Shown in pieces: positions 9,118 through 30,701 of a stretch of DNA of 64,000 nt. The notes beneath the pieces are model-generated. The model was not told the origin of the DNA, searched no databases, and saw only the letters and a list, made by a program, of their open reading frames with translations. The stretch lies in NCBI GenBank assembly GCA_050949045.1, contig JBMNEZ010000001.1, positions 416,001 through 480,000 on the forward strand, read 5' to 3'. A program made the translations under genes and the position numbers. Positions within the stretch are counted from its first letter, which is position 1. Each line of letters begins with the position of its first letter. Source of the DNA: Candidatus Izemoplasmatales bacterium. GTDB taxonomy: Bacteria; Bacillota_I; Bacilli_A; Izemoplasmatales; Hujiaoplasmataceae.

Positions 9118-9157
9118 ATCAGTTCATGAACAAATAATTGTCAAGGAGGAAAACCCG

Positions 9158-11665
9158 ATGAAAACAAGAATACTCGGATTATTGATGGTTAGCTTAACCC
9201 TCGTTTTCCTTTTTGCTTGTAAAGAAACTTCGATCACCACGGCCTTGACCGATTCAACTACAACTGCGATCACAACCAAGACCAGTGTTCCCACAACCGC
9301 GACTGAGGCGACGACCACGACAACTGCCAACGATGATTTTCTGATCGCCAATCCCGGCTTTGAAAGCGGCGATCTTAGCGGTTGGACGGTGCTTTCAGGC
9401 GAAGCTTTCGCTTCGGAATATGTCACAAATGCTTCTCGCATTGGCTCCGCACCGTACAACAAAGCCGGCAACTATCTCTATGGCGCCGCTCCGGAAGCGT
9501 TGATTGGAAAGATGCGCTCTGAGAGTTTCCGAGTTTCGGGCAGCGGCTATGTGTCCTTCCTACTAGGTGGCGGCTATCTATCTGCTTTATGCTATGTCTC
9601 TGTTGTCGAGGAATCAACGCATCTGGAACTCTTCCGGATCGGCAATGAGGCTTTAGAGATTGTCGAACACTTCGGTCAGATGACGAGGCACTATGCCGAC
9701 TTATCGCCCCATCTTGGAAAAGAGGTTTACTTCCTTGTGGTCGATGATCAGACGGCCAACGGCGGCTATCTGGTTGTCGATGATTTCATATCCTATTACG
9801 CCAGCACGCCCAATACTGATCAGGGAATCCTCGCAACGGACATCAAACCGAGTTTTCCGGATCTGACAACGATCCCGAACAGTCTCGATAACGGCGATTT
9901 CGCAACAAGAACGCTTGAAGGCTGGACAATCAGCGGCGAAAAGGGCGTCTTTCGCGACTCGCATATCAACGAGAGTGGAAGGCTCTCGAACCGTCCCGAT
10001 GAGACCAAGATCGGCGTCCTCCGCTCCCCGGCCTTCAAAGTCAGTGGGAAAAACATCATCTCCTTTCGGCTCGGAGCGACCAAACACGCTGATCTAACTT
10101 ATCTGTCGATCAAAGAAGTGGGCACGAACATCGAAGTCTACCGGACTTACAGCGATCGCTGGATCGACGCTCATGAGGAGGCAACCCATCTTTATTACAT
10201 CGATCTTGGAAAGCACAGCGGACAGGCTTTGTATTTGGAGTTTGTCGACAACTCCCGGGGTGATTGGGGACTCCTCACGATCGAGGATATCATCACCTAT
10301 TACGACAGCGATCCCGTCGTCACCGACGAGATCGGCTGGAATCTGCTTAATGAAATCGATCATAGACGTGATTATGATAATATGCGCGACTATATCGATC
10401 CGCTAATTGCCTCAATCTCCGATGAGGCTGAACGGATTACCTTCCAAAAAACCTTCTATTCAACCGTCGATGGCATCAAAAACAACAAAGGCGACTGGCC
10501 CGGCGTGCTCCACTACAAGGACAACGGAATGACTTTTGTCTATACGGGGGACATCCACGCGATGTGGCTAAGGGATTCGAGCGCTCAGGTCCTGCCTTAC
10601 CTCCAGTTCATGGAAATGGATCAGGATGTGAAACATATGGTCAGAGGCTTGCTTTTGCAGCAGTTCGAGCAGATCCGCCGCGATCCCTATGCCAATGCCT
10701 TCAACCCCGACGGGAGCGTCTTTGAAAAGAAATTTGAGATCGATTCGCTTTGTTATCCCTTGTGGCTCGCTGATAAGTATTACTCGCTTACAGCTGACGA
10801 TACGATCTTCGACTACTTCTTTGAGCTGACCGTCCGGAAGGTGATTGAGACCCTGAGAAACGAGCAGAACCATTCCGATCATAATTACCGGATCGAGAAC
10901 GAATACGACCGTTCGGTCGGCTCAAATGACTTCAATCCGGAAAGCAAGTTGATTTGGAGCGGCTATCGTCCAAGCGACGATGTCTGTCACTACAAGTACT
11001 TCATCTCCGGCAATATGTTCGCTGTCGCCACTCTGGAAAAAATGGCTATCCTATTTGAAAATCTCGGTCTTGACGATGAACTTCGCCTGGAGATGGAAGA
11101 CCTGGCGGAGGAAGTAAGAACCGCGATTGAAACCTACGGCGTCTATGATCACCCCGTCTATGGCAAGATCTATGTTTTCGAGACGACCGGCCTGACAAGC
11201 GATTCGGGTTCGGCAGCCGAAAAAATCTTGGCCGATGCGGCCAATATCCCGAGTTTGTTGGCGGCTCCGTGGCTTGGTTATCTCGAGGTCGACGATCAGG
11301 TCTACCAGAATACCAGGGCCTTCATCCTGAGCGATGATAATCCGTATTACCATGAAGGGACCTATGCGAGCGGCATTGGCGATCCCCACGACAGCATCTA
11401 TCATGAAAACCCCGCCCTTCCCGTCGTTTGGCACATGGCGCTCGCCATGCAAGGTCTCACGGCCACTGACCCCGATGAGATCGATTTGATGCTTGCCTAC
11501 ATGAAAAATACGACTGCGGGCACTTATGTAATGCACGAGGCCTTCAATGCCAACAACCCCTCCCAGTACACCCGTGATTTTTTTACCTGGCCCTGCGCCC
11601 TTTATGCCGAACTTTATCTCAGAAACAAACTCAACATCAACCTTGATCAAGGAGTGACGCCATGA
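9158..11665 (+). CDS. Lipoprotein glycoside hydrolase family 125 (exo-alpha-1,6-mannosidase-like) with N-terminal CBM-like module
   Basis: Start re-called at ATG 9158 after AAGGAGG; lipobox LFAC; GH125 motifs TGDIHAMWLRDS, DPYANAF, EKKFEIDSLCY, RPSDD, MHEAF, FTWPCALYAE. Confidence 0.88.
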   Translation: MKTRILGLLMVSLTLVFLFACKETSITTALTDSTTTAITTKTSVPTTATEATTTTTANDDFLIANPGFESGDLSGWTVLSGEAFASEYVTNASRIGSAPYNKAGNYLYGAAPEALIGKMRSESFRVSGSGYVSFLLGGGYLSALCYVSVVEESTHLELFRIGNEALEIVEHFGQMTRHYADLSPHLGKEVYFLVVDDQTANGGYLVVDDFISYYASTPNTDQGILATDIKPSFPDLTTIPNSLDNGDFATRTLEGWTISGEKGVFRDSHINESGRLSNRPDETKIGVLRSPAFKVSGKNIISFRLGATKHADLTYLSIKEVGTNIEVYRTYSDRWIDAHEEATHLYYIDLGKHSGQALYLEFVDNSRGDWGLLTIEDIITYYDSDPVVTDEIGWNLLNEIDHRRDYDNMRDYIDPLIASISDEAERITFQKTFYSTVDGIKNNKGDWPGVLHYKDNGMTFVYTGDIHAMWLRDSSAQVLPYLQFMEMDQDVKHMVRGLLLQQFEQIRRDPYANAFNPDGSVFEKKFEIDSLCYPLWLADKYYSLTADDTIFDYFFELTVRKVIETLRNEQNHSDHNYRIENEYDRSVGSNDFNPESKLIWSGYRPSDDVCHYKYFISGNMFAVATLEKMAILFENLGLDDELRLEMEDLAEEVRTAIETYGVYDHPVYGKIYVFETTGLTSDSGSAAEKILADAANIPSLLAAPWLGYLEVDDQVYQNTRAFILSDDNPYYHEGTYASGIGDPHDSIYHENPALPVVWHMALAMQGLTATDPDEIDLMLAYMKNTTAGTYVMHEAFNANNPSQYTRDFFTWPCALYAELYLRNKLNINLDQGVTP

Positions 11666-14163
11666 AAAAGCTGATTCTTTTGATTCTGACCATTATTCTC
11701 ACTTTTGCGCTCCTGCCCTTTTATTCAAGTGTGAGAGCGGAAGCGCCCCTCAGGGAGTATGGAGCCGATCTCGCCTTTAAAAGGCGCGTCGTCTCGAGTC
11801 CGAATACCGATCAAAACCTCAACATCAATGCCGTTGACAACGATCCTTCAAGCCGCTATGCGGCCGTGAAGGATGATTCTGCCTTTTTCTATGTCGATCT
11901 CGGATCAGTGGAGAAGATTGGCAAGGTCGTAATCGCTTTCGAAGCGGCCTATGCCAAAAAGTATCTGCTTCAACTGTCAAACGATGCCTTGACGTGGACG
12001 ACGGTGGCGACGGTGACCAATACCAAGGCGACGGTGAATGAAATCATCTTCCCCGAGTACCTTGAAGCCAAGTTTGTCCGTTTTCAGGGCGTTGAAAGGG
12101 GCATGGTTGATTATGGCTATTCATTCTGGAGTTTCGAGGTCTATGGACCCAAAAACCTGGCAGTGGGGGCCAATGTCGTCTTTGTTTCCTCAAATGAAAA
12201 CGAAGTCGAACTGAACAAAAGCTGTCTGACCGACGGCCTTGCCCACACGAGGTGGGCATCCGGCGTCGCTGATGGCCAGCATGTGATCATCGACCTTCTT
12301 GAAGCCAAGACTTTCGATCTCATCAAGATCCGCTGGGAAGTCTCCTTTGCAAGACGGTTTGCCATTTATGGCTACGAGGGAACACCTGATGGCGCTTATC
12401 CCGAAAGAGACGATGCTTCCTGGTTTGAAATCGAGAGATCGGATGTCGGTCTTGGCGAAGTCGATACTTTCAAACTTGATGGTGATCAGACCACAAGATT
12501 CATCAAACTCGAACTGATCCAAAGGGAAACGAACGAAGTGACGAAGAAGACCGGACGTTTTCCCTGGGAATCGACCTTCTCGATTTATGAATTCGAAATC
12601 TATGACTGGGATGCCATCCACGCAGCTCCTCTGGGCAGCGTCATGGAATTTTCCAAAGCCGCTCCCGCCTGGACGGCGATGGCCAACATAACCTTGAATG
12701 AAAGCGGGTTATTGCTGGCGCCGATCGGTTATCCCATTGAAGCCGATGGCAAGGTGACCGACCTTGCGAGCATCGCCAGTGGCGACATTCCCGGTTTTGA
12801 ATCTTATGCTGTTTATAATCCCGCCGTCATTTATGATGATGAAAGGGAAATGTTTCATATGATCTACCGAGCGGAACTCCCCGATAACTTCCATCACTAT
12901 TTCGGGGAGAAATATCCGCTTGGCCATATGTCCAGCCTGGCTTATGCTTTTTCCTTCGACGGCATCAACTGGGAAAGAGGAGCCGAAAATCCGATCGCCT
13001 GGGCGACATCCGCCGATGAAAAAGGCGGCGGCCTTGAGGATCCCAGGATGTTCAAAATCGAAAATGACCCTAATCGGGGGGGACTGACAACCTACTACAT
13101 CACCTACACGATGTATGACAACAACATGACTCGTGAGGGCATCATCTACACCCATGATTTTGTGACTTTCACCAAGGTCGGCAGACTCGCTCCCGATTAT
13201 CCAAACAACAACAAATCAGGAACCTACGTGACAGACCCCGAAGGGAATGCCGTGCTGATCAATGACCCAAGGCCGGGCAAGACCGGCAAGGTCTACATGA
13301 TCTACATGAAAGACGGAGGTTACACGAGAATCGGCTTCACGACCGATGTCATCAGGATCGAAGCCGAAGACATCATCGATATCGACACTTCAGGGTTTGG
13401 TTCAAACCATATCGAAGCCCTGACCAAGGGCAATGAGTCGTGCATGGCCTTGACCAATATCTATGGAGAAGAAGATCAAGATATTTATCTGATGTATGGC
13501 GGCGGCGTCCTGAGCGATCCGGAAATCAAGAACCAACAACCAAACGCCAGCGGCTGGTTTTATGCCTTGGGCGTTCTCAAAACGACCAAAGCGAATCCGT
13601 TTGAACTCACCCATTTCGATTATGATCTTAATGAACCCTCGATGTATCCCACCGATACGAACAAAATCGATTACGGCCTCTTCGACAAGTGCATGTTCGC
13701 CGATTCGCTGATCCGCCATGACAATCAATGGTATCTCTACTACGGAGCTGGCGACATGTATGTGGGAGCCGCCCTTGCAAGAGCGGATTTCACCGCCCCC
13801 AGCGCCACCTATGAACTCGAAGGCACCACTTTGATCGCAAGCACCACCGCTCTAAACAAGAAATACAAAGACGAGATGACGCCGCTGCTTGTCGAATTCG
13901 CGGTTGACGTCTACAACCTTGACGGCACCTTGCTCGACACGGTTGTGAAGAGTTATGAGATCGAGCACTTCACCATCTCGCCAATTGGCATTTACGAACA
14001 AGGCACCGAAATCACGGTAGCGGTCGATTTAACAAAGATCAGCGCGCTGGAAACGGATTACTATGTCATCGGTTACATCCGCGATCAACTTACAAAAGAA
14101 CGGCTGAACAATCCTTCAAGTTATCTGCACGTCACACCGATCATCATTTATCCTGAAGGTTAG
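11662..14163 (+). CDS. Secreted protein with two F5/8-type-C (CBM32-like) domains and a GH130-like beta-propeller domain
   Basis: Signal peptide ending VRA-E; discoidin motifs 'AVDNDPSSRY..VDLG..FEAAYA..', 'TDG..TRWAS'; GH130-like 'VYNPAV', 'GLEDPR', 'YYITYT', 'LYYGAGD'. Confidence 0.75.
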   Translation: MKKLILLILTIILTFALLPFYSSVRAEAPLREYGADLAFKRRVVSSPNTDQNLNINAVDNDPSSRYAAVKDDSAFFYVDLGSVEKIGKVVIAFEAAYAKKYLLQLSNDALTWTTVATVTNTKATVNEIIFPEYLEAKFVRFQGVERGMVDYGYSFWSFEVYGPKNLAVGANVVFVSSNENEVELNKSCLTDGLAHTRWASGVADGQHVIIDLLEAKTFDLIKIRWEVSFARRFAIYGYEGTPDGAYPERDDASWFEIERSDVGLGEVDTFKLDGDQTTRFIKLELIQRETNEVTKKTGRFPWESTFSIYEFEIYDWDAIHAAPLGSVMEFSKAAPAWTAMANITLNESGLLLAPIGYPIEADGKVTDLASIASGDIPGFESYAVYNPAVIYDDEREMFHMIYRAELPDNFHHYFGEKYPLGHMSSLAYAFSFDGINWERGAENPIAWATSADEKGGGLEDPRMFKIENDPNRGGLTTYYITYTMYDNNMTREGIIYTHDFVTFTKVGRLAPDYPNNNKSGTYVTDPEGNAVLINDPRPGKTGKVYMIYMKDGGYTRIGFTTDVIRIEAEDIIDIDTSGFGSNHIEALTKGNESCMALTNIYGEEDQDIYLMYGGGVLSDPEIKNQQPNASGWFYALGVLKTTKANPFELTHFDYDLNEPSMYPTDTNKIDYGLFDKCMFADSLIRHDNQWYLYYGAGDMYVGAALARADFTAPSATYELEGTTLIASTTALNKKYKDEMTPLLVEFAVDVYNLDGTLLDTVVKSYEIEHFTISPIGIYEQGTEITVAVDLTKISALETDYYVIGYIRDQLTKERLNNPSSYLHVTPIIIYPEG

Positions 14164-14171
14164 GAGGAATC

Positions 14172-16292
14172 ATGATGAAAAAATACTATCTGCTCTTCCT
14201 CCTTATTCTCTTGACTGCTCTTGGCGGCTGTCAAGAGGAAACGACTCTGCCCACAACCCTGCCGGTCACAACTGCCTCAACCACCACTCTGTTGGCGCTT
14301 GAGGCGCCCGGCAATCTTGTTTTGGCCGACAGGACTCTGAGCTGGGGCGAGGTGCCGGGGGCGAATGAGTACATCGTCAGGATCGACGGCAGGGAAACAA
14401 ACGTTTCGACAAACTCCTACCTTATCCCGGAATCCGTTTACGGCAAACTCTCGATCAGTGTCAAGGCCAAAGCCGGGACAGTGGAATCACCGTTTTCAAA
14501 TCCGATACTGAGAACGATCTACTATGTGTTGTCACAGCCGGAAAATATAGCCCAGAACGGCACCTTGATCACCTGGGATGAAGTTCTATGTGCGAGCGGC
14601 TATGTCATCAAGGTGAACGGTGTCGAGATCGTCCTTGAAGACAATGAATACAATATCGATATCGCCACCTCTAAAACGATCAATGTGAGAGCGATCTGTC
14701 CCTCTGATTCCTATATCATCAATAGCGATTTCACTGTTGATTTTGTGACCAAGACCAGACTGCAAACGCCCTCGGGCATCCGCTATGAAGAAGGCAGGCT
14801 GGTTTGGGATGCGGTCGCAAACGCTGATGGTTACCGGCTGACGATCGGGGCTTCCAGTTACCAGGTCGCGATCAATGTTTTTACCGATGTTTCGGCTTAT
14901 CGCGGAGAAGAAACAGTCACTGTGACAGCCAAGAACACTCTGGGGCTGTATCTTGATTCGATTGCGGCTTCAGCGATCATCGATTTTCCGATCCAGAGAC
15001 TTCCAAAAGTGACCGGCATAGAAGTCTCTGGAAACAATTTGAGGTTTGAGGGAAGCGCCGGCGCCACCGTTTATGATATCTACTATGGCGGGAACTACTT
15101 TGCGACGATCACGGAAACAACCTACCTCATACCCCCCTCGATCATGGCTGATCCAGACAGCTATCTCCAAGTCGTTGCCAAAGCCGATGGCTTCCATGAT
15201 TCGCCTCTGAGCGAGAAGGTCTTCGTCAACTATGAACTGATCTCGACCGAAGCGGAACTGATCGCCATGACCGCCGGCGGGCACTATGTTCTCGCAAACG
15301 ATATCGCGCTTACTGCGCCCTGGATTCCGCTTGATTTCTCAGGAAGCTTAAACGGCAACGATTTCGAGATTTCAAACATCGTTATCAGCGACGCATACCA
15401 GAACACCGGTTTGTTCGGCGTCTTGAATGAAGCGACGATCACCAATCTCAACCTGAACGGCGACATCAATTTCATCAGCGGTTTGTTTGCGGTCAATGTC
15501 GGTTCTCTCGCAGGAACGATCACAAGTTCAGAGATCGCCAATGTCAGCGCCAGATTCACGATCAACGCAGCTTCCCATAACGGAGTGGGAACAGTTGGCG
15601 GCCTGGTCGGCCTGCTTGAAAACACCAATCTCTATCGAAGCCATTTTGCGGGCGAAATAACAACCGCCAATATGACCACCGGCGGCCTCATCGGCAAGGC
15701 CCAGAACCCACTCGCATCCTCATCAGTCCACCAGTCAAGCGTTACAGCCGCCATCTTTAGTTCGGGCGGCCTTGAGAGCCCGGCGGGCGGTTTCATCGGC
15801 GTCATGAACAACAATTATCTTTCAATCAGCGAAGCTATGGCGAGGGTTGAAGTGGTCGGCGCAAACACCGTCGGCGGTTTTGTCGGCCGACTGGACTTTG
15901 GACATATCAGCGACAGTTACGCTATCGGAACCGTGGAAGCGACAAACACCGAATTTGTGAGCCTCGGCGGCTTCATCGGCATGCTTGTGGGCTACAACGC
16001 GACCGTCGTCAATATCTTGTCGGCTGTCGATGTCGTTGATCCTTTGGGCAACATTGAAGTCTACGCGGGCGGCTTCACGGGACTTACACCCGGAGGCAGT
16101 TACGCTCTCATGTATGACAATTGTCACTACCAAAGCCTGGCAAATCCGATTGACCGGATCGGCAACGCCGAAACCGGCAGAGGCGATGGCATCGCCCTGC
16201 TTGTCGGCTTAGAAGACATTTCCGGCTTCAGCCCATCAATCTGGGATTTTGGGACATTCTTCAAGTTAGTATGGGAAAAAGAAGCAGACTAA
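14172..16292 (+). CDS. Lipoprotein with FN3-like repeats and GLUG-type beta-helical region
   Basis: Lipobox LGGC, Thr linker; repeated 'P.N/G......WD.V..A.GY'; 'GHYVLANDI', 'GLFG', multiple 'VGG[LF][VI]G' repeats. Confidence 0.75.
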   Translation: MMKKYYLLFLLILLTALGGCQEETTLPTTLPVTTASTTTLLALEAPGNLVLADRTLSWGEVPGANEYIVRIDGRETNVSTNSYLIPESVYGKLSISVKAKAGTVESPFSNPILRTIYYVLSQPENIAQNGTLITWDEVLCASGYVIKVNGVEIVLEDNEYNIDIATSKTINVRAICPSDSYIINSDFTVDFVTKTRLQTPSGIRYEEGRLVWDAVANADGYRLTIGASSYQVAINVFTDVSAYRGEETVTVTAKNTLGLYLDSIAASAIIDFPIQRLPKVTGIEVSGNNLRFEGSAGATVYDIYYGGNYFATITETTYLIPPSIMADPDSYLQVVAKADGFHDSPLSEKVFVNYELISTEAELIAMTAGGHYVLANDIALTAPWIPLDFSGSLNGNDFEISNIVISDAYQNTGLFGVLNEATITNLNLNGDINFISGLFAVNVGSLAGTITSSEIANVSARFTINAASHNGVGTVGGLVGLLENTNLYRSHFAGEITTANMTTGGLIGKAQNPLASSSVHQSSVTAAIFSSGGLESPAGGFIGVMNNNYLSISEAMARVEVVGANTVGGFVGRLDFGHISDSYAIGTVEATNTEFVSLGGFIGMLVGYNATVVNILSAVDVVDPLGNIEVYAGGFTGLTPGGSYALMYDNCHYQSLANPIDRIGNAETGRGDGIALLVGLEDISGFSPSIWDFGTFFKLVWEKEAD

Positions 16293-16451
16293 GAATTTTG
16301 GATAGATAAACATAGGATTGTAGGAGGTGGTGCCTTTGATTGAAAGAAACATCGAGGCGCGAACAACAATGAGAAACGCATCTAAGGGATTGCTTGTGCT
16401 CAAAAGCGAATTACCAGACAAACGAGAAGCAACTTATAAAGGAGAATGTGT

Positions 16452-16583
16452 ATGAAAGAAAAACAGACAAAAAAACAATATGAAAGGCCGATGCTTGAAG
16501 TGATCGAATTTGACCTCGAAGACAGCATCGCGACGAGCATGGATTTCGGCCCTTCGACGATTTGCGGTGAGCAGACATGGTAA
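16452..16583 (+). CDS. Putative RiPP precursor peptide A1 (43 aa: MKEKQTKKQYERPMLEVIEFDLEDSIATSMDFGPSTICGEQTW)
   Basis: Translated by hand; RBS AAAGGAG upstream; YxxP leader motif; paralog at 23101 with an identical 21-aa segment differing only by synonymous changes; stop overlaps ATG of next gene. Confidence 0.88.
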   Translation: MKEKQTKKQYERPMLEVIEFDLEDSIATSMDFGPSTICGEQTW

Positions 16584-19057
16584 ACATCAAAAAGGCTTTG
16601 GCCTGTTTTCTCGTCGTGACGCTGTCACTCTTGACGGTGGCCTTTCTTGCGAAAGAAACGACCATCAAGGCAACAGGGGGACAACAAACAGCTGAAAGCG
16701 TGGAATTGACCCTCGTGAGCTACTTTGACCAGGAAAACACGATCACATCCGTGTTTGAGATTCCCGAGGAGGGAACGCGGTGGTTTGATGAGTCGACAGA
16801 CAAGCTCCATGTCTATACTTCTGGAGCCTGGGACGCGGGAACAGCTGTCCCCGTTGTCGCCCCTGAGATGCCATCAACCGGCGACATGTGGTTTGACGAG
16901 GCAAAGAACACGCTCTACACTTACCTGGCTGAAGGTTGGGATGCCGGCGAGGTACTGCCGACCGCGGAACCCGATCTCAAGTATGGACAGAAACTGTCGT
17001 TAAACAGCAGTTTGGCATCAATGCCGGGATATTCATTTCTCTTTTGGGAAGTGAACGGATCGATTCGTCATGATTATGCTATCGATCACGTGTTCACTCT
17101 AACCAAAACAAATGTCATCAAGGCTGTTTTCAGCCCTTCTGACAGGCACGCGGTGGTTTTTGTGGATGCCAACAGTGAGATCCTTAAAGTCGAGTATGTC
17201 GCAGATAACGGAACTGCCACCCCGCCGGAGACCCTACCATCAAAACCGGGATATTCAACCAACGGGTGGGATGTCAGTTATGAAAATGTCACCGATGATG
17301 TCGTGACGGTGTTGCAGTATACTGCCACAGACACGACTGAGTATCTGGTTACGGTCGAAAACGGCACCGGCGATGGCAGTTATGCTTATAACACTGTTGC
17401 GACCGTTACTGCGGACGTCCCTTCACAAGGAAATTATTTTCATCATTGGTCGGTCGGCGACGAGATCGTCAGTTATCAATCGACTTACAAGTTTTCTGTC
17501 TATGGTGCGACAACGATAACCGCAGTTTATGAGGGTTCAGCGCCTTCCGACAATCCCTACGTGGTGCTCGGGGATGATCTGGCGATCAGATCCGGCTCAA
17601 AAACCTATGTCGGTCAGTTCTATGTTCCAACCGGCTACACATTGATCGAATACGGGATCTTGACATCGATCAGCGAAGCGGAAATCAATCTCGACACCAT
17701 TAGGACAACAAGGTATCCTGGCTATAAGTACAATGCGGCCACCAAAGAATTCGTGATGAGTTTTGAAGAAAACGAAATCACCGCCGCCAGGGCTTATTTG
17801 ATTTGTAGTGATTCGGAAGATGCTATCCACACTTATTACAGCGGCCATAGATACTCGTCTTCCATCTATCAAGTCAAGAATGGCGGATTTGAGTTTGAAG
17901 ACGGCGCCATAACCGGTAGTCTCGATGGCTGGTATGGATACAACATTTGGAAGAACGAAAAGGGAATGCAATCATTCCTTCGTTGGGACGATGGGAATGG
18001 AAAATTTGTCAATCTTGATGACCGCGTCGTGAACACAACGTATTTTGACAATCATCCTTATAACAGAGATGGCAGTTACAATCTCGGGATCACATGGCCG
18101 GGAGGCAGTTGGGATCAAACATCAGAAAGAATGGGACATCTCCGTTCATCTAATTTCACGCTTGGCGGAAGCGGATGGATCAGTTTCAAACTCGGGGGAG
18201 GCAAGTCTAGCTCTTTCGCTTTCGTATCCGTTAGAAGAGCTTCGGATAACTATGAGGTCGCCCGTTTTGGAAACAAGAACTACAACAATACTGCAATCGC
18301 GTCGGCACAATACGGTTCGGCCATAACCAATGCGGAAGCATTCTTATTCCAATACTACTATGACTTAAGCGAATATTTGGGCACAGAATTGTATTTCCTC
18401 ATCACAGAATCATCATCAAAAGAATGGTGTATTCTCTCAGCCGACTCATTCGTGACCTACTATCCAATAGCGCCCTCAACTGATTCGGATACCTTAGCCA
18501 CAAATATCCTGCCAACGATTTACAATGCCGGATCCTCAACGAACCAGTTGGCAAACAACCTTAATGGCAATGTTAATAATTGGGGGAACCCAAATAATGT
18601 GTTCCGTTGGGATGATGGGGCAGGAAGAACTAATGCTATTAGTGGAGATAACGATTTGGGAGTCGCCCGTTCATCAGCGTTTAATATCAATGGGCCCAAC
18701 ACCTATCTATGGTGGCAGTGGGAAGGCAATATCAGTCAAGACAAACAATTGTTCATATCCATCAAAGAGGTCGGGACAAACATTGAAGTTTTGCGATTGG
18801 TAAGAAGAGACAACTTGTCAGGAAAAACAGGTGGTGGATTTGACAATCACTGGTTTGATCTCAGCGGGCTTGATGCCGGCAAGGAGTACTATGTTGAACT
18901 ATGTGACAATTTGACCATTGGTTGGGGCTTGATCAGTATCAAAGATATTTATCTGGCACAGAATAATCAAAGCGACAAGGTTGGGTCGGCTCAACCAAAT
19001 GACGTGGCGGTTTCAATCTCAGGAATTGAAACCGAGTTTGCTTACGAGGAACCTTGA
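16577..19057 (+). CDS. Secreted multidomain protein: shared N-terminal 'YFD' region plus C-terminal tandem CBM-like module
   Basis: Signal peptide; N-terminal region aligns by eye with 23242 and 25825 proteins; C-terminal half aligns with the module in the 3652 protein (ERMG.LRS.NFTL.GSG.ISFKLGGGK). Confidence 0.8.
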   Translation: MVNIKKALACFLVVTLSLLTVAFLAKETTIKATGGQQTAESVELTLVSYFDQENTITSVFEIPEEGTRWFDESTDKLHVYTSGAWDAGTAVPVVAPEMPSTGDMWFDEAKNTLYTYLAEGWDAGEVLPTAEPDLKYGQKLSLNSSLASMPGYSFLFWEVNGSIRHDYAIDHVFTLTKTNVIKAVFSPSDRHAVVFVDANSEILKVEYVADNGTATPPETLPSKPGYSTNGWDVSYENVTDDVVTVLQYTATDTTEYLVTVENGTGDGSYAYNTVATVTADVPSQGNYFHHWSVGDEIVSYQSTYKFSVYGATTITAVYEGSAPSDNPYVVLGDDLAIRSGSKTYVGQFYVPTGYTLIEYGILTSISEAEINLDTIRTTRYPGYKYNAATKEFVMSFEENEITAARAYLICSDSEDAIHTYYSGHRYSSSIYQVKNGGFEFEDGAITGSLDGWYGYNIWKNEKGMQSFLRWDDGNGKFVNLDDRVVNTTYFDNHPYNRDGSYNLGITWPGGSWDQTSERMGHLRSSNFTLGGSGWISFKLGGGKSSSFAFVSVRRASDNYEVARFGNKNYNNTAIASAQYGSAITNAEAFLFQYYYDLSEYLGTELYFLITESSSKEWCILSADSFVTYYPIAPSTDSDTLATNILPTIYNAGSSTNQLANNLNGNVNNWGNPNNVFRWDDGAGRTNAISGDNDLGVARSSAFNINGPNTYLWWQWEGNISQDKQLFISIKEVGTNIEVLRLVRRDNLSGKTGGGFDNHWFDLSGLDAGKEYYVELCDNLTIGWGLISIKDIYLAQNNQSDKVGSAQPNDVAVSISGIETEFAYEEP

Positions 19058-19079
19058 TTTTTTTACTTGCCGTGATTCA

Positions 19080-19112
19080 AAACCCCCGATGACACGCCGT
19101 TGTCGGGGGTTT
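19080..19112 (+). terminator. Intrinsic terminator-like hairpin
   Basis: AAACCCCCGATGAC-loop-GTTGTCGGGGGTTT inverted repeat after the 16577 gene. Confidence 0.7.
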
Positions 19113-19179: not shown

Positions 19180-20187
19180 GTGATCTCATTGACTGACTAT
19201 CAAGGCTTAAAATCTAAAATCATCAGACTGGGAGCGCTTCAAAGAGTCCCGGTTCTTGGCGAGTTTGAACTGACCTCGAAATGTAATTTCGCCTGTCCCA
19301 TGTGTTATGTCAAAGACAATAAGCCAAAAAGCGAGCTGGCCAAGGAAGAGTGGATCTCGATCTTTGAAGAAGCGGTTGTCGAAGGATTGGTCTACGCCCT
19401 TTTGACCGGAGGGGAGCCCCTCACAAGGAGCGACTTTGTGGAACTGTATGAGTTCCTCTATGACTATGGAGTCAAGATAACGGTTTATACAAACGGCTAT
19501 CATTTAACCAAAGAACAGCTTGAGGCCTTCACGAACAGGCCCCCGGAGATGGTTGCCATCACTCTTTACGGCGCAAGTGACGATACCTATAACATCGTGA
19601 CGGGCATCAAGGATGGCTATACAAAAGTAACAGAAAACATCCTCAAACTGAAAAAAAGCAAGATCAACATCGCCTGCCGGGTAATTCCGATTCCCGAGGT
19701 CTACGCCGATCTTGATGATATCTTGAAGTTTATCAAAGAAAATAACATTCCCCTAGGGTATTTCCTCTATCTAGCTCCGTCGAAGAAAAAGGATTACCAC
19801 GGAAGATTATCTCCCGAGCAATTAGTTGATTTCGAGCAGCGGCTTCTTACTTTCAAAGGAAAGCAAAAACCCTCCAAGGATTTTGATACTTTATCGAGTT
19901 GCGCCGCTCTTAAGAGCGGCTATGCGGTGAACCACCGAGGATATATGCAACCATGTACTTTGATGGCTCATCCAAGAAAGAAACTGGAACGCGGGACATT
20001 TCTCACAACCTTTCGGGAACTAAGTGATAAATGGCAGAATCTTGAGAAGTCCCATGACTGTGAGTCCTGTGATTTAAGCTCATCATGCATTCCCTGCCCC
20101 GCCAGAAGATATTATGAAGGCGATCCTCACAAGTGTGCTCCCTACCTCCTTGAAATCGCCAAGGAAAGGAAAAAACGAAATGACTGA
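19180..20187 (+). CDS. Radical SAM protein with SPASM domain (peptide maturase type)
   Basis: CNFACPMC (CxxxCxxC), LTGGEP, YTNG; SPASM Cys set C..GYMQPC..CESCDLSSSCIPC..C; true start may be TTG 19189 after AGGTGA. Confidence 0.92.
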   Translation: MISLTDYQGLKSKIIRLGALQRVPVLGEFELTSKCNFACPMCYVKDNKPKSELAKEEWISIFEEAVVEGLVYALLTGGEPLTRSDFVELYEFLYDYGVKITVYTNGYHLTKEQLEAFTNRPPEMVAITLYGASDDTYNIVTGIKDGYTKVTENILKLKKSKINIACRVIPIPEVYADLDDILKFIKENNIPLGYFLYLAPSKKKDYHGRLSPEQLVDFEQRLLTFKGKQKPSKDFDTLSSCAALKSGYAVNHRGYMQPCTLMAHPRKKLERGTFLTTFRELSDKWQNLEKSHDCESCDLSSSCIPCPARRYYEGDPHKCAPYLLEIAKERKKRND

Positions 20188-21031
20188 CACCTATAAGATC
20201 GGTAATGTTTGTCTTAGATTTAAGTATATCTACGACAAATATTTTGCATCGAGGATACGTTCATACAAAAGCGATGAATCACCTGAATATCAAATGCGGG
20301 TTGTTATTAAGAAAGATTTGATGTTTCCCGAAGGAAAACCGAAATATAGATTTCAAGACCGTCAGATTTATGAAGATGGACAAAAAGGAGTCATTGTCAA
20401 ACATGATGACAAAAACAATATTACCCACCTAATCACCTATTCGCTCGATTTCAAGGATATTCTAATCGAGCTGTCGGAGTCATTGGGATCAAGATTGGCC
20501 GAAGTGGAATACAAAATCAGCGGAATGATGTTTTTCGAGATTGCGATCAGGAATGGTTTGATCCCGATTCACGCCTCAGCTATCGGCTACCAAGACGAAG
20601 CTATCCTTTTCTGTGGTTCCTCCGGAACCGGCAAATCGACTCAGGCGGAGCTTTGGAAACAAAATCTTGACGAGGTGATCTTCATCAACGACGACAAGCC
20701 TTTGCTTTATGAGGCCGGCGACGGACTCTATGTCACTGGCTCGCCTTGGTCGGGAAAGACATCAAGGAATGAAAACGTCAAAATGAAGGTGAAAGCGATC
20801 GTCTTCATCAAGCAAGCCCCCCACAACAATCTCATTTCTCTCACTGTCTATGACAAGATAACCAACTTCTTAAGAAACATCTATCGACCGAGGGAAGAGG
20901 CCAAGATCGAGAATGTGCTGGAACTGATCGAAAAGATGATCTCTGATCTTCCGGTTTACAAATATTATTGCACAAAAGAGAATGATTCTTTCGAATACTT
21001 GTATCAGGCACTTTATAGAAGGGATTACTGA
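20180..21031 (+). CDS. HPr-kinase-like P-loop kinase (RiPP-associated type)
   Basis: 'IHASAI..EAILFCGSSGTGKST', 'INDD', 'GSPWSGK'; start re-called at ATG 20180. Confidence 0.8.
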   Translation: MTDTYKIGNVCLRFKYIYDKYFASRIRSYKSDESPEYQMRVVIKKDLMFPEGKPKYRFQDRQIYEDGQKGVIVKHDDKNNITHLITYSLDFKDILIELSESLGSRLAEVEYKISGMMFFEIAIRNGLIPIHASAIGYQDEAILFCGSSGTGKSTQAELWKQNLDEVIFINDDKPLLYEAGDGLYVTGSPWSGKTSRNENVKMKVKAIVFIKQAPHNNLISLTVYDKITNFLRNIYRPREEAKIENVLELIEKMISDLPVYKYYCTKENDSFEYLYQALYRRDY

Positions 21032-21033
21032 AG

Positions 21034-21306
21034 ATGAAACTGAAAGCAAACTATGTTTTAAGAGAAGTCGCGGGCGAGAATATCGTCATCCCTGTCGACA
21101 GCGAGGCCATCAACTTCAACGGCATCATGACGCTCAATGAAACCGGTAAGTTTTTGTGGAACCAGTTGAAACAAGAGGTGTCGGTCGAAAGCTTGATTGC
21201 GTCCATCGTCGATAACTACGAAGTCGACAGAAACACCGCCGCCCAAGACGTGACGGCATTTATTGAAAAGCTTAGAAAACACAATGTTCTTGAAGATGGC
21301 AAGTAA
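21034..21306 (+). CDS. PqqD-family stand-alone RiPP recognition element (RRE)
   Basis: 90 aa; 'LREVAGENIVIP', 'LNETGKFLW', 'YEVDRNTAAQDVTAFIEKL'. Confidence 0.92.
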   Translation: MKLKANYVLREVAGENIVIPVDSEAINFNGIMTLNETGKFLWNQLKQEVSVESLIASIVDNYEVDRNTAAQDVTAFIEKLRKHNVLEDGK

Positions 21307-21745
21307 GAAAGAGACAAAAAACGGCATCTTGCCGCTGATCGAGGAACAACTGCTTCTCGGCAAACAAGTGGCCTTTAAAGTCAAGGGAACAAGCATGTTC
21401 CCGTTTTTGCATTCGGGAAGAACCGAAGTCACGCTCCATAAGCCAACCGTCGAACCGAAAAAATACGACATCGTCCTTTTCAAAACAAAAGACCACTATG
21501 TTTTGCACCGGATCATCAAGCGTCGCCGCGATGTTTACATCGTCATGGGCGACGCTTTAAAGAAAAAAGATTATGTCAAGATCGACCAAATCATCGGTGT
21601 CGTCAAAGAGATCAAAGTCGATGGCAAACCGGTCGACATCCATGAGAAGAAATACAAGCGTAAAGTCAGATGCTGGGTCGCTTTCCGGGCCGCCAGGAGA
21701 TTCCTCCTCTACTACTTGAGGCGTTCACAGAAGGATATAAAATGA
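21296..21745 (+). CDS. S24/S26-family peptidase (candidate leader peptidase)
   Basis: 'VKGTSMFPFL' catalytic Ser box, 'DIVLF', 'VLHRII', 'MGDA'; no N-terminal TM anchor. Confidence 0.8.
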   Translation: MASKKETKNGILPLIEEQLLLGKQVAFKVKGTSMFPFLHSGRTEVTLHKPTVEPKKYDIVLFKTKDHYVLHRIIKRRRDVYIVMGDALKKKDYVKIDQIIGVVKEIKVDGKPVDIHEKKYKRKVRCWVAFRAARRFLLYYLRRSQKDIK

Positions 21746-22935
21746 GCATCCTCTACGATCAATTGATCTTTATCAGCAAATGCGCCCTGAACAACCTTGA
21801 ATACGAAGAGGCCATCGACAACATCAAAGAACTGTTTCGTCTTGCCCGGGAAAACGGCCTGTCGGGGCTCTTTTACGCCGTTTTGAAAAACAACCAGTCA
21901 GTCATTGATGAACAGCGATTGCTTCTCAAAGAGTACTATCTCTACCAAGCAAAAGACATAATTCAAAAGCAGGCGATTGCGGAGATCACCTCTTTTTTCA
22001 ACCATGCCCGGATCGATCATATCTATCTCAAGGGCTCGGCCATCAAGAAACACTATCTTGAGAGCTATATGCGCTCGATGGGCGATATCGATCTTATCAT
22101 TAAGCCGGAAGATTTAGAGCGTTCACGAATGATTTTAAAATCAGCCAACTATAAACTCGACATTGAAGGCTCGACTCATGACGTCTATTTCAAAGGCAGG
22201 GACATCATAGTTGAGGTCCATCCCGGAGTCGACCATCACCTTGATTCGGATCATTTAACCGCTTTGGGCGACGTCTTCGCCGACGGTCTTCCCATCAGCG
22301 GATGTTTATTCGAGTTATCTCCCGAAAAAGAACTTGTCTATCTTTTATCCCATCTCAAGAAGCACTTTCTTTCATCGGGTGTCGGCTTGCGTCAAGTCCT
22401 TGATATCGGCGTCTTTTTAGACAAGATGGAAGCCAAAATCGATAACGAAAAGTTATTTGACCTTCTCAAAACTGCTAATCTTACAAACTTTGCAAAGAAC
22501 ATGATCTCCTTCAATAAGCAAGCCTTCGGCTTCCGGATTGGAGAATTTATCCTGTCCGGATACCGGATGGCGGATGCTCTCTTTGAAGAAACCAAAGCAT
22601 ATGTCATCGGTTCTGGAGTCCATGGGACCGCTAGGGATTTCAATCGCAGTGTTCCGGTGCTTACGAAACATTCACTCAAGACCGGTAAGACTAGAGGCAG
22701 CAAGATTCGTTATTTGATCCGTATTCTTTTCCCCAAGCGGATCGATCTGATGTCAACTGAGAAGTATCTGAAAAAACATGGTTGGCTGTTGCCGTACGCC
22801 TGGATCAAAAGGTGGATCAGGCTTGTTTTCAAGAAAACAAGAAGAAGCATCGCCAAACTGAAAGCTTTGGATGCGGTTGACAAAGAAATGCTTCAGAGTA
22901 ATCTTGATCTATATCGTAAACTAGGTATTAACTAA
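21742..22935 (+). CDS. Nucleotidyltransferase family protein (NTP_transf_5-like)
   Basis: 'IYLKG', 'RSMGDIDLII', 'VEVH', 'H..KH....GVGLRQVLD'; start re-called at ATG 21742 (ATGA-like junction). Confidence 0.85.
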   Translation: MSILYDQLIFISKCALNNLEYEEAIDNIKELFRLARENGLSGLFYAVLKNNQSVIDEQRLLLKEYYLYQAKDIIQKQAIAEITSFFNHARIDHIYLKGSAIKKHYLESYMRSMGDIDLIIKPEDLERSRMILKSANYKLDIEGSTHDVYFKGRDIIVEVHPGVDHHLDSDHLTALGDVFADGLPISGCLFELSPEKELVYLLSHLKKHFLSSGVGLRQVLDIGVFLDKMEAKIDNEKLFDLLKTANLTNFAKNMISFNKQAFGFRIGEFILSGYRMADALFEETKAYVIGSGVHGTARDFNRSVPVLTKHSLKTGKTRGSKIRYLIRILFPKRIDLMSTEKYLKKHGWLLPYAWIKRWIRLVFKKTRRSIAKLKALDAVDKEMLQSNLDLYRKLGIN

Positions 22936-23100
22936 AGAATGCGCACGCATCGTATATAGTAAACAATAGGTGGTATTCCGAATATTATACATACAGATTT
23001 ATCATTAATTGTTTTATCAATATGGGCAATATGATAAAATATCTGTGGTATGCGCTTGATCGATACATAATATTTTTCTTGAAGGAGATGACGTTTAAAA

Positions 23101-23235
23101 ATGAAACAAGTCAATGACAAGAAATCGCAATATGTGAAGCCCGACATCGAAGTGATTGAATTCTCGCTTGAAGACAGCATCGCCACCAGCATGGATTTTG
23201 GCCCGTCGACAATCTGCGGCGAGCAAACGTTTTAG
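23101..23235 (+). CDS. Putative RiPP precursor peptide A2 (44 aa: MKQVNDKKSQYVKPDIEVIEFSLEDSIATSMDFGPSTICGEQTF)
   Basis: Translated by hand; AAGGAG upstream; YxxP leader; paralog of 16452 peptide; stop codon TAG is embedded in the RBS (TAGGAGGT) of the next gene. Confidence 0.88.
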   Translation: MKQVNDKKSQYVKPDIEVIEFSLEDSIATSMDFGPSTICGEQTF

Positions 23236-23241
23236 GAGGTA

Positions 23242-25683
23242 ATGATGATGAAAAAGGGATTTATTTTTTGCTTGTTGTCGCTTTTCCTGTTCGCTTTGCC
23301 GGTAAGGTATGTTAAAGCTGAATCAATGGCAAATGTCGATGTTCAAGTAAAAGCCTATTTTGATGAATATAACATTCTAACAACAAACGTAAATGACCAG
23401 CCATACGCCAGCAAAATATCTGCCTCTCTTCATATCCCTGAAGCCCCAGAAGGATATTCTTCATATCAGTTCTTCTGTTGGGTTGTCAATGGGGTTGTCA
23501 GGCAAGACCTTCCAGCTGATTATGAGTTTTTTGTTAGAAACACGACCGTTCTTACAGCCATCTACAGGCCGTCTGACAGACATGCGGTTCTTTTCATGGA
23601 CTCCAACGGAACTGCAATAAAAGTTGATTATGTCAGTAATGGTGAAGATGCAACACCGCCGGATGTATCAAGTTATTCCAAACCGGGGATGGTCGTCTCA
23701 TCAACCAGTCCTTGGGGCGAAGTAAGTCTAACCAACATCACAGAAAACAAAATCGCGTATCTCGAGTATGATTTTGATACTTCGGAAACCTTTAATGTCA
23801 CAGTTGTGAACGGTAGCGGCAGCAATGAAGCGGCGTCATACGGATCAGTATTGACTGCTGTCGCCAATGCTCCCGAAGGAGATTTGGAATTCTTTCATTG
23901 GACCGATGAAAACGGCAAAATTGTAAGTCATAAACCATCATACTCATTCACGGCCTACAAAGACACAACGATTACCGCGGTTTATGAAAACATGCCGTCG
24001 GTTGATATTCCGTATGTTGTGATAAGTGATCTGTTGTTGCTGAGAGATGGCAAAAGCACATTCATTGGTCAGTTCAACATTCCCGATGGATATACTATGG
24101 TTGAATATGGATTTCTTGCAGCTAATACTCAATTTGATTTTAAACTCGATACCGAAGGTGTCATTAAATACCAATCGGAAAAATCAAATGCGCAAACTAA
24201 CGAGTATATGATTAGTTTTCCATTTGTAAATGGGCAATCCGTCAAAGGTTACATTGTTGTTAAAAACGCCTTAACCGGTTTATTAGAATACCATTATAGC
24301 AGTACTGAGAAAATTTCTTTCTTGATGATCAGCGAATATGGAGAAGGTTCGAGCTACAACAAATGGATTGAAATTTATAATCCAACCGATGAAATCGTCG
24401 CGCTTTCTGATTATAGGGTTGAACTTTATGTCAATGGCGCTACCACAGCAAGTAATCCGCTATCATTTACTACTGAATCGATTTTTCCTGGAGATGTCTA
24501 TGTTATTGCTCACCCTGATTCAAACGCAGATATTCTAAGTCAATCGGATGTTACCAGCGAAGTAACTAATTTCAATGGAGACGATGCGGTTGCATTGCTG
24601 AAAAATTATGTTGTGATCGATGTCATTGGTGTTATTGGAACTGATCCAGGAACAAAATGGGATGTAGGAGAAGGATCCACTCTTGATCATACACTGGTAA
24701 GGAAACCAAGTACGGATTATTATCCGAATGGTGCTTGGAAACCTTCGGATTGGGATGTCTATGATTGTGATTACATAGGCAATCTTGGATATCACGAAGA
24801 TGTAGAACCCTTGTCAATTTCGATTATCGGTGCTACTGAAGTGATGAAAGATGCATCTCTACCACTAGCAGTAATGTATAACCCGATCAATTCGATAAGG
24901 GGAGTCGAATGGGAAAGCAGCAACACTTCGATTGCCACGGTTAATAGTAATGGACTTGTGACTGGGGTTGACGTGGGAGAGGTTACTATTACTGCCAGGT
25001 CCGCACTCAATGGAACTATTTTAGATACACATCCAGTTACGGTTACTTCACCTGTCTATTATTCTGTCAGTGCATCATCTTCTGACGAATTAAAAGGTTC
25101 AGTCAGCGCGAGCCCAACTTCGGTTTTATCTGGCGGCTCTTCGACAATCACAATTTCGCCAGCAACAGGATATCAAGCCTCAACAATCACAATTAATAGC
25201 GAAGAACCTATTGATATTACTGGACAGACATCATATTTGATTGAAAACATCTTTGAAAATAAGACGGTTGTAGTAAATTTTGTTGAAGGTATTACGGAAT
25301 TAGTGTTCTCAAAGACTCTTACTGGTACAACAGGTAATCCCCCTTCAGGGTGGACCTATAGTGGCTTAGGTAGTGCATATAAAGACGGCTCACTAAAAAT
25401 GGATACCACTGGCGACTATATTATTTCTGAATCGTTTGCTCTTCAAACATCGGCAATTTTGTATATTGAATTGAAAGGCAACGGTTTTTCTGGAGGTAGT
25501 ATTAGTTTCTACGATCAAGAAAATAACCTTCTCAAGACTTTTTCAACTGAAATCGAAAATTTGCAAAAAACACTATCATTTACCATTTCAGATACTTCGG
25601 TTACTTCTGTAAAATTTGTATATAATAAATCAAGCGGAAATGTTGGAATATACTCAGTTGAGTTAAAACACATAGTTGACTAA
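23242..25683 (+). CDS. Secreted protein: shared N-terminal 'YFD' region, lamin-tail domain (LTD), Ig-like group 2 domain
   Basis: Signal peptide VKA-E; LTD 'ISEYGEGSSYNKWIEIYN..FNGDDAVAL..IDVIG'; Big_2 'WESSNTSIATVNSNGLVTGV..GEVTITA'. Confidence 0.8.
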   Translation: MMMKKGFIFCLLSLFLFALPVRYVKAESMANVDVQVKAYFDEYNILTTNVNDQPYASKISASLHIPEAPEGYSSYQFFCWVVNGVVRQDLPADYEFFVRNTTVLTAIYRPSDRHAVLFMDSNGTAIKVDYVSNGEDATPPDVSSYSKPGMVVSSTSPWGEVSLTNITENKIAYLEYDFDTSETFNVTVVNGSGSNEAASYGSVLTAVANAPEGDLEFFHWTDENGKIVSHKPSYSFTAYKDTTITAVYENMPSVDIPYVVISDLLLLRDGKSTFIGQFNIPDGYTMVEYGFLAANTQFDFKLDTEGVIKYQSEKSNAQTNEYMISFPFVNGQSVKGYIVVKNALTGLLEYHYSSTEKISFLMISEYGEGSSYNKWIEIYNPTDEIVALSDYRVELYVNGATTASNPLSFTTESIFPGDVYVIAHPDSNADILSQSDVTSEVTNFNGDDAVALLKNYVVIDVIGVIGTDPGTKWDVGEGSTLDHTLVRKPSTDYYPNGAWKPSDWDVYDCDYIGNLGYHEDVEPLSISIIGATEVMKDASLPLAVMYNPINSIRGVEWESSNTSIATVNSNGLVTGVDVGEVTITARSALNGTILDTHPVTVTSPVYYSVSASSSDELKGSVSASPTSVLSGGSSTITISPATGYQASTITINSEEPIDITGQTSYLIENIFENKTVVVNFVEGITELVFSKTLTGTTGNPPSGWTYSGLGSAYKDGSLKMDTTGDYIISESFALQTSAILYIELKGNGFSGGSISFYDQENNLLKTFSTEIENLQKTLSFTISDTSVTSVKFVYNKSSGNVGIYSVELKHIVD

Positions 25684-25824: not shown

Positions 25825-30038
<4,214 letters not shown>

Positions 30039-30039
<1 letters not shown>

Positions 30040-30701
30040 TGAAGAAGAAAATACTGATCATTTTGTTTCTGGTTCTCGGTGTCACGCTGTTTGGATGCAA
30101 GGGTGAAACGACTGTCACGACCACAAAAGCCCCGCAGATAAGGACAACCACCGCCTTTTTGATCGTGAACACCCTCGAATATTCCTATGACAAGGTCTCG
30201 GACAGCGATCTCGAGATCAACCTTTCTTCGCAGTCGGCTACGATTACCGAACTCCAAACCGAATCGGGAACATCCTTTTCGAGTGAATGGGTCACCTACA
30301 CGGAAGGCAAGGCTCTGATCAATTCACGTTATCTTGAAGGCTTGCCGCTCGAGACAAATCGCTTCCTGATAGAGACTTCGGCCGGCCTCTTCGAACTGAG
30401 GATCACGATCAGCGATACCCGCAAACCCGAGATCATCGGCTCCCTATCCGTCAATTACCAGATGGATGTCGATCTAGTCTTCGAGTATGAAGCTTATGCG
30501 GGATCGTTCCAGATGATCTCGGGAAATGACATCACCAGCGATGATTACACATTTGATGGGTATACCTTCACGATCGATTTCGACTACATCCATGGCAAAT
30601 TCACAGAAAACCCCGAACGGAACGCTTTAATTCTCCAGGTGTTTTTCAATTATCCCGAAGGCGTCGTCTTTAGTTATATCTTCATCTACAAACCCGAATA
30701 A
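30039..30701 (+). CDS. Small lipoprotein with X2/Ig-like domains
   Basis: Lipobox LFGC, Thr linker, 'INSRYLEGL','DDYTFDGYTFTI' resembling repeats of the 3652 protein. Confidence 0.7.

Follow-up and report, generated by a model that had tools for sequence, protein, structure and literature searches.

LPP gene clusters encode a peptidase resembling signal peptidase I (SPase I), an RRE, an HprK kinase, an NTP transferase and an exporter that resembles MsbA, as described in the available portion of Popov et al. 2026 (PMC13381572). According to that portion, Ser3 of the core is polyphosphorylated, leader cleavage is RRE-dependent, the LppA core starts with A-Q-S, and deletion of lppN had no visible effect. 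The biological roles of LPP are stated there as unknown and the final products as not identified. The same portion centres on the article's own cluster 1 and places a similar-looking RRE of gut Ruminococcus in cluster 9, 'others', with no precursor. A word search of the main text for radical, rSAM, surface, InlB and Izemoplasma gave no match, and the six supplements contain Radical_SAM once, as a column of a domain matrix. Among phosphorylated lasso peptides, PsmN is required for the hexose on the phosphoserine of pseudomycoidin, as reported in the accessible part of PMC6993621.

The window analysed here is a 64,000-nucleotide stretch of a Candidatus Izemoplasmatales genome. Two tiny ORFs in this window encode precursors of a variant LPP-type peptide that is accompanied by a radical SAM enzyme, and its link to a module of secreted proteins is new here. 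Neither the peptide sub-family nor the module link is described in the literature searched, most subscription papers being outside its reach. Neither was found in the texts of PMC12710340 and PMC7470986 or in the available text of PMC10288494, whose supplementary dataset lies outside the search and could list the enzyme.

Organization of the locus and comparison with known peptide systems

The two precursor genes and the cassette between them comprise the following features.

16439..16444, + strand: ribosome-binding site of precursor A, AAGGAG, 7 nt 5' of the ATG at 16452
16452..16583, + strand: precursor A, 43 aa, with YxxP at 16479-16490
16530-16580, + strand: predicted core of precursor A, 17 aa, with a putative cut at I26/A27 placed by analogy with LppA
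16536-16538, + strand: core Ser29 of precursor A, invariant and a putative phosphoserine by analogy with LppA
16563-16565, + strand: core Cys38 of precursor A
19180..20187, + strand: radical SAM enzyme (PF04055, E 9e-22) with a SPASM-type Cys-rich C-terminus and without a fused RRE
20180..21031, + strand: HprK-like kinase (TIGR04249, E 1e-7; TIGR04355 and TIGR04352 weak; all below cut-off)
21034..21306, + strand: stand-alone RRE (PqqD; PF05402, E 1e-17)
21296..21745, + strand: signal-peptidase-I-like (S24/S26) leader peptidase (TIGR02228, E 2e-7)
21742..22935, + strand: NTP_transf_5 protein, LppN/PsmN-like (PF14907, E 4e-42), GDID metal motif intact
23082..23087, + strand: ribosome-binding site of precursor B, AAGGAG, 13 nt 5' of the ATG at 23101
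23101..23235, + strand: precursor B, 44 aa
23182-23232, + strand: predicted core of precursor B
23188-23190, + strand: core Ser of precursor B
23215-23217, + strand: core Cys of precursor B

The radical SAM enzyme carries CxxxCxxC at residue 35, seven Cys lie between residues 241 and 319, and its best PDB sequence match is SkfB (E 5e-16). Walker A and NDD motifs of the kinase are intact. The peptidase has GTSM, HR and GD motifs at 42, 82 and 96, which correspond to the Ser-His-Asp set, and no N-terminal hydrophobic anchor is visible in its sequence.

The locus resembles the LPP cluster of Paenibacillus alginolyticus (LppA/K/B/S/D/N) in having a stand-alone RRE, a SPase-I-like Ser-His-Asp peptidase, an HprK-like kinase and an NTP transferase, a YxxP leader, A-x-S at the predicted core start, 1-3 precursors and no lasso cyclase. 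When aligned to PbaB1 (PDB entry 9x90), the discrete RRE places Asn opposite G42 and Asp opposite Q79, positions that the available portion of PMC13381572 ties to YxxP selection. Unlike in LPP clusters, a radical SAM enzyme is present here, the core has a near-invariant Cys, and no LppD-like (MsbA-like) exporter is found in the locus or in the genome, whose best ABC matches are 27-31% identical. With 15 candidates scored per genome, such an exporter was found in 0 of 43 genomes of the organism's own family and in 8 of 43 genomes of the sister family f2. The leader ends in F-x-L-E-D/E-S-I rather than HQxIxFET, and the Ser follows the Tyr by 19 residues rather than 18. When held against the LPP consensus YxxPxVLxHQxIxFETxxS, the 120 best-scoring matches to the peptide profile described below all have YxxP and the final Ser, and HQ and FET are absent. 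The cores are short and conserved here, whereas LPP C-termini are highly variable, and the peptide is tied to secreted module proteins, whereas the LPP paper reports capsule and lasso loci. Both ORFs are best explained as YxxP-leader precursors of one LPP-type ribosomal peptide that departs from the type in two membership features, the exporter and the leader consensus.

Other systems share parts of this gene set. Like the lasso peptides paeninodin and pseudomycoidin (PsmK/PsmN), the peptide has an RRE-binding leader (NF033524 weak, E 0.05), and the HprK-like kinase and PsmN-like NTP transferase are those of phosphorylated and phosphoglycosylated lasso peptides. The Ser, however, is near the core N-terminus here and at the C-terminus in lasso peptides. 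Genome matches to the macrolactam synthase family PF00733 are below cut-off and far from the locus, and the B2 peptidase family PF13471 is absent from the genome. A SPASM-type radical SAM enzyme, an RRE and a Cys-bearing core are shared with sactipeptides and ranthipeptides (SkfB, StsB; available part of PMC10288494), and in most genomes the Cys and the enzyme come and go as a pair. Unlike those systems, there is a single Cys, no family model matches at cut-off and the enzyme is dispensable in several relatives. The best NCBIfam matches of the radical SAM enzyme and the kinase are to the SynChlorMet proteins ScmE (E 2e-20) and ScmC (E 1e-7) of the set TIGR04248-04251, but the scores are far below cut-off (73 vs 400 and 31 vs 125 bits), one radical SAM enzyme is present instead of two, and none of the ScmC, ScmD, ScmE and ScmF models matched above cut-off.

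The co-occurrence of the core Cys and the radical SAM enzyme was counted in 31 peptide-bearing genomes, of which 21 have both, 5 neither, 3 the Cys only and 2 the enzyme only (Fisher p 0.006 by hand count, a value overstated by kinship). A further genome, G098, was left out of this count because of its weak match and internal stop. The three Cys-only genomes are fragmented assemblies, one of them cut inside the cassette, and the two enzyme-only genomes have a Cys-less core. Genome G026 contains two partial cassettes (L067, 1879-3752), one with a 627-aa radical SAM ORF directly before the RRE; this ORF is about twice the usual length and is possibly a fusion with the kinase.

Codon evidence for two protein-coding genes

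The predicted cores of precursors A and B are the same except for the final residue, W in A and F in B. The initial annotation had reported 10 silent and 0 replacement differences over a segment of 21 codons, and all ten listed codon pairs were reproduced; pairwise comparison of A and B over this segment yields a pS of 0.74 and a pN of 0. Two further silent changes in EVIEF were present as claimed. One replaced codon (D/S, three base changes), absent from that annotation, lies between EVIEF and LEDS, and over the stretch from E to T 26 of 27 residues are identical, with a pN of 0.035. Free divergence of the N-terminal ~10 residues was confirmed for the first 9 codons only, as conservation starts upstream at the Y-x-x-P motif. 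The 21-codon segment had been chosen post hoc, and chance was therefore controlled by simulated random mutagenesis at two rates; at either rate, 0 of 200,000 runs gave a 21-codon identical-protein stretch with at least 10 silent codons.

Thirteen of the 15 base differences between A and B fall at third codon positions, and the other five frames are less conserved, with 14 to 23 identical residues of 26-27. It is vanishingly improbable that the conservation stems from an RNA structure or from another reading frame instead of a protein gene. The best other frame, which is antisense, is also identical at 23 of 26 residues, yet it shares third positions with the sense frame, and no RNA structure was shared across a 10-sequence alignment (-0.95 kcal/mol, 0 compensatory pairs). 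Motif spacing is moreover kept in 257 protein matches and both ORFs have ribosome-binding sites. This explanation was rejected on the lack of a shared fold, the third-position bias and the weaker alternative frames. Codon counts, simulation, family hits and the genome survey support the claim that both ORFs are real genes under purifying selection, as far as sequence comparison can tell.

The position of the AAGGAG site favours a start of precursor A at 16452 over 16446. Its stop overlaps the start of the gene for secreted protein A by 7 nt. Neither tblastn nor a profile search found further precursor copies beyond the two in the genome, a single contig at 98% completeness.

Precursor A and protein A are each matched in part, at >=99% identity, by contigs from four RNA studies, and one of these contigs spans both; contigs by themselves indicate neither transcription, strand nor a single transcript. 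The contigs of all four studies end at 19066-19086, near the following feature.

19080..19112, + strand: 14-bp hairpin 3' of protein A, a weak hint of a possible transcript end

Precursor B and most of the cassette fall outside the RNA-library contigs, which proves nothing, and a promoter scan was uninformative (12 sites vs 11.7 expected). In one contig of library X1 (depth 8.6), the A7 run of precursor A at 16469-16475 is longer by one A. This additional base would shift the frame of the precursor and is absent from the contigs of X2-X4; it reflects either an assembly error or phase variation.

The peptide family

A profile built from 32 relatives yielded 257 protein matches, and the named ones are hypothetical proteins, mostly of Candidatus Izemoplasmatales. 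In the top 120 matches Tyr, Pro, Phe, I-A-x-S, Gly at Ser+4 and Cys at Ser+9 are invariant. These are the best-scoring of the 257 and so are skewed to Cys-bearing forms; Cys-less members exist. Of the positions D, F, P, S, T and C that the initial annotation proposed as invariant, the Ser of I-A-x-S and the Cys hold in the top 120 matches and the rest do not; the proposed core P is present in 33 of the 120. The same annotation had treated the 21-codon block as all core, a reading that gives way, by LppA analogy, to one in which the block would span the end of the leader (LEDSI) as well as the core, which would start at A-T-S.

Neither window peptide matches any Pfam family, and neither reaches the cut-off of any NCBIfam family. 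The 32-member alignment gave no convincing NCBIfam match (best E 0.0095) and no PDB sequence match. Among 8000 scored candidates, no long precursor fusion was recognised, which is a weak negative, and four precursor-like matches are longer, at 88-96 aa, by length only.

The precursor gene occurs in 32 of 93 genomes of the order, each at least 85% complete. Patchiness of this kind is deemed typical of conflict genes in the available portion of PMC13381572, and the closest solved radical SAM enzyme is SkfB, both of which would suit an antimicrobial or conflict peptide whose neighbouring secreted proteins merely share a strong promoter or a mobile block. The core, however, is acidic and has no Lys or Arg, paralogous cores are identical, no immunity gene or exporter was recognised, and strict one-to-one adjacency to the secreted proteins is kept also at dispersed sites. 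An antimicrobial role is thus improbable.

Core identity within and between genomes

Over the first 16 core residues, the mean number of differences is 0.17 in 12 within-genome pairs (8 genomes) and 4.5 in 49 pairs of same-slot copies from different genomes. Leader differences are similar within and between genomes (5.5 vs 5.7), as are silent fractions (0.52 vs 0.51). A second, broken copy in G074 was left out of this comparison. The core is therefore not invariant across the family, contrary to the initial annotation. Its proposal that the peptide has a fixed role in structure or recognition and is not a diversifying toxin agrees with the evidence and is retained as a proposal.

Cores are identical in 7 of 11 multi-copy genomes and differ between lineages. 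Three further genomes break the one-core pattern, with 4, 8 and 8 differences; in G069 and in G070 the copies differ at 8 of 16 residues. Slot-A modules of six genomes form one clade (support 99/98), so that the two-copy layout either predates the core differences or has moved as a block. Slot-B modules form no single supported clade. The within-genome identity reflects either old gene conversion or parallel selection, which are inseparable, silent sites being almost saturated within genomes and between them.

The broken G074 copy (L098, G074:C121:1868-1942) has an internal stop and lies 5' of a module gene.

Secreted proteins and their shared module

Each precursor lies directly 5' of a gene for a secreted protein, and a module of ~320 aa is common to three proteins of the locus.

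16577..19057, + strand: secreted protein A, 826 aa, with a signal-like N-terminus, the module at about 16970-17845 and no catalytic domain detected
23242..25683, + strand: secreted protein B, 813 aa, with the module at 23329-24315, a lamin-tail domain and Big_2
23998-24306, + strand: terminal FN3/Ig-like domain of protein B
25825..30039, + strand: secreted protein C, 1404 aa, with the module at 25906-26856 and without its own precursor
30039..30701, + strand: X2-like lipoprotein, whose relatives recur beside module genes in many loci; a possible alternative anchor partner

The module was predicted with a pLDDT of 92.9 as an all-beta structure that ends in an FN3/Ig-like domain at residues 226-329. 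Its earlier part resembles InlB B-repeats, and no Pfam family covers the terminal domain. No specific solved relative was identified: Foldseek TM-scores are <=0.23, Atlas neighbours are unnamed clusters, and a VIA search gave generic FN3/Ig-like matches with many ties (best Z 9.1, rmsd 2.5, 96 aligned). The absence of a solved relative does not show a new fold.

Among 150 representatives, 96 have the terminal domain at the N-terminus and 7 at the C-terminus. By crude patterns, 60 of 70 module proteins have signal-like N-termini, one of the 70 has a lipobox-like match, and one of 49 complete ones has a hydrophobic tail. The passengers vary and include endonuclease I, phosphatase, subtilase and sugar-binding domains. 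Protein C carries two lamin-tail domains, Big_3, a metallo-beta-lactamase fold and endonuclease I. Large lamin-tail nuclease proteins have been described in this order, and the available part of that source makes no mention of PqqD or an anchor (PMC8289736).

The region of protein A that follows the module recurs in neighbouring phosphatase and GH125 lipoproteins. Residues 370-794 (17684-18958) share 43% identity with the middle of the phosphatase lipoprotein, and a portion of them shares 32% with the GH125 lipoprotein's N-terminal part; judged by these alignments, the region is an unannotated domain shuffled among secreted proteins. An insert with a short repeated W-F-D motif precedes the module in protein A (16700-16970) and is absent from proteins B and C. 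Upstream of precursor A, a surface-protein block at 3652-16292 contains an acid-phosphatase lipoprotein with X2 repeats, the GH125 lipoprotein, a GH130-like protein with F5/8 domains and a GLUG lipoprotein; in several genomes this block keeps synteny with the precursor-A slot. A 1063-aa frame at G000:C1:263759 matches the module profile weakly (E 2e-9), probably via InlB-like repeats only.

Linkage of peptide and module across genomes

A search with the peptide alone found 48 peptide genes in 35 genomes, and the module starts less than 700 nt downstream of 44 of them. The other four are cut by contig ends, three at a contig edge and one before a truncated protein-A orthologue, and none of the 48 precedes anything else. 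The peptide-module order is kept also where the fetched region has no cassette gene (L055, L058, L061, L064 and L068). Among the 93 genomes, 30 have both peptide and module, 2 the peptide only, 4 the module only and 57 neither, kin among them not being independent. The four members of the order with a module and no detected peptide (G063, G064, G100 and G104) are 87-90% complete. Many module genes, among them that of protein C, come without their own precursor. In P0186, a single-member cluster, module and leader-like tail share one frame, which may be due to a missed stop.

Outside the order, the terminal domain was detected in 11 of 400 Clostridia genomes, at C-termini. PF14907 is present in 10 of these 11 and in 166 of the 400 overall; in the remaining 156 PF14907-bearing genomes no module was detected, nor in five genomes with LPP-type cassettes. 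In 3 of the 11 the precursor comes immediately after the module gene, and one of these three has a full cassette including the exporter; in the other 8 no precursor lies next to the module gene. Protein P0138 is assigned by name to Clostridium pascui. One metagenome contig carries a full LPP cassette between two module-ending genes.

In a different arrangement, the module would be an anchor that binds the co-encoded X2 or GLUG lipoproteins in a dockerin-cohesin-like manner, and the peptide would have a separate surface role. X2-like and GLUG lipoproteins do recur beside module genes, several of which are without their own precursor. This arrangement is nonetheless a doubtful one, as it leaves unexplained why peptide and module are glued together at every peptide gene with enough downstream DNA, and why the same link exists in Clostridia.

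The modified peptide could instead remain in the cytoplasm, as a signal or regulator of module-protein expression or as a secretion chaperone, such that adjacency reflects co-expression. The family has no dedicated exporter, and the precursor runs up to or into the next start codon, in the manner of a leader ORF. However, 8 genomes of family f2 and Clostridia keep an exporter together with the peptide-module order, the Clostridia precursor lies after the module gene, a position unfit for an attenuator, and no regulator gene recurs in the loci. A cytoplasmic role is therefore considered unlikely.

In six loci, five of gut Clostridia and one of an order member (L027, L033, L039, L040, L045 and L110), a Cys-less precursor whose leader is similar follows a large protein. 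These large proteins mostly have a signal-like N-terminus, and some of their C-termini show faint module-like E-x-G and A-Y patterns, which are not significant. Remote module homology upstream of the gut-Clostridia precursors was not detected by profile search, and hhalign probabilities were <=6.6%.

Complex modeling of the module with the precursor yielded a score of 0.38 (runs 0.82, 0.35 and 0.38), against 0.00 for the best control, with contacts agreeing at >=23% and a partner pLDDT of >=41. Of 157 solved pairs, 116 reached the mark applied to such models, as did 2 of 215 mismatched pairs, and at scores <=0.60 it was reached by 18 solved pairs and both passing mismatches. The model lends weak support to docking. 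That weak support, and the single core per genome in 7 of 11 multi-copy genomes, differing between lineages, would also suit a diffusible lineage-specific signal or self tag with the module as its receptor or sink. The module proteins, however, contain neither a membrane-spanning nor a signalling part and carry hydrolases and binding domains as passengers, which makes a signal or tag of this kind quite unlikely.

A candidate pathway and its consequences

A functional tie between the peptide product and the co-encoded secreted module proteins is probable. In the proposed pathway, the RRE would bind the YxxP leader, the kinase would (poly)phosphorylate the invariant Ser of I-A-x-S, and the SPase-like enzyme would remove the leader, most likely before Ala, to leave a 17-residue acidic core with phospho-Ser3. 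By analogy with LppA/K/B/S, leader binding, Ser (poly)phosphorylation and leader cleavage are very probable. The cut is placed between Ile and Ala, giving the 17-residue core, because the invariant A-x-S parallels A-Q-S of LppA; the site is a guess because the leader end departs from the LPP consensus. The radical SAM enzyme is likely to cross-link core Cys12 as a thioether. NTP_transf_5 would then add a sugar to the phosphate, a step to which the analogy with PsmN gives roughly an even chance.

In the favoured reading, the mature peptide would be a ligand that is bound by the module and linked via the phospho-sugar to a glycan or glycolipid of the surface. Nucleases, phosphatases and sugar-binding domains that have neither a lipid nor a membrane anchor would thus be held on a peptidoglycan-free cell. 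Dockerins, SLH domains and choline-binding repeats are likewise terminal modules reused on many secreted passengers, at either end; to our knowledge, no ribosomal peptide serves as a ligand in those systems. The full docking chain, in which a peptide ligand on a surface glycan or glycolipid retains the module proteins, is plausible and falls somewhat short of likely. Against it, export is without explanation in the organism's own family, which has no LppD-like exporter, and the peptide product is a prediction from gene sequence. The more specific proposal of a ribosomal peptide as the anchor of a protein-display system, tied by kinase and NTP transferase, stapled by the radical SAM enzyme and docked by the module, is tentative and somewhat unlikely.

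The linkage provides a specific candidate partner for an LPP-type peptide, namely an unannotated module carried by secreted nucleases, phosphatases and proteases that have no anchor. With a 17-residue peptide and a 35-kDa domain the partner question is directly testable. The variant also predicts a thioether-plus-phosphate product class, and the answer could reach far, since PF14907, one cassette marker, is present in 166 of the 400 sampled Clostridia genomes. If the display reading is true, LPP-type clusters gain a role in Izemoplasmatales, which are wall-less, and in some Clostridia; should docking prove wrong, the finding reduces to an LPP sub-family that is uncharacterised and has a radical SAM enzyme. 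No Mur ligase is present in the genome, in line with the description of Izemoplasma as wall-less in the available part of PMC7301438. A phosphatase region (1049-1820) follows a lipobox and an X2 stalk in the window, and its counterparts in G021 and G024 (51-55% identity) follow the module.
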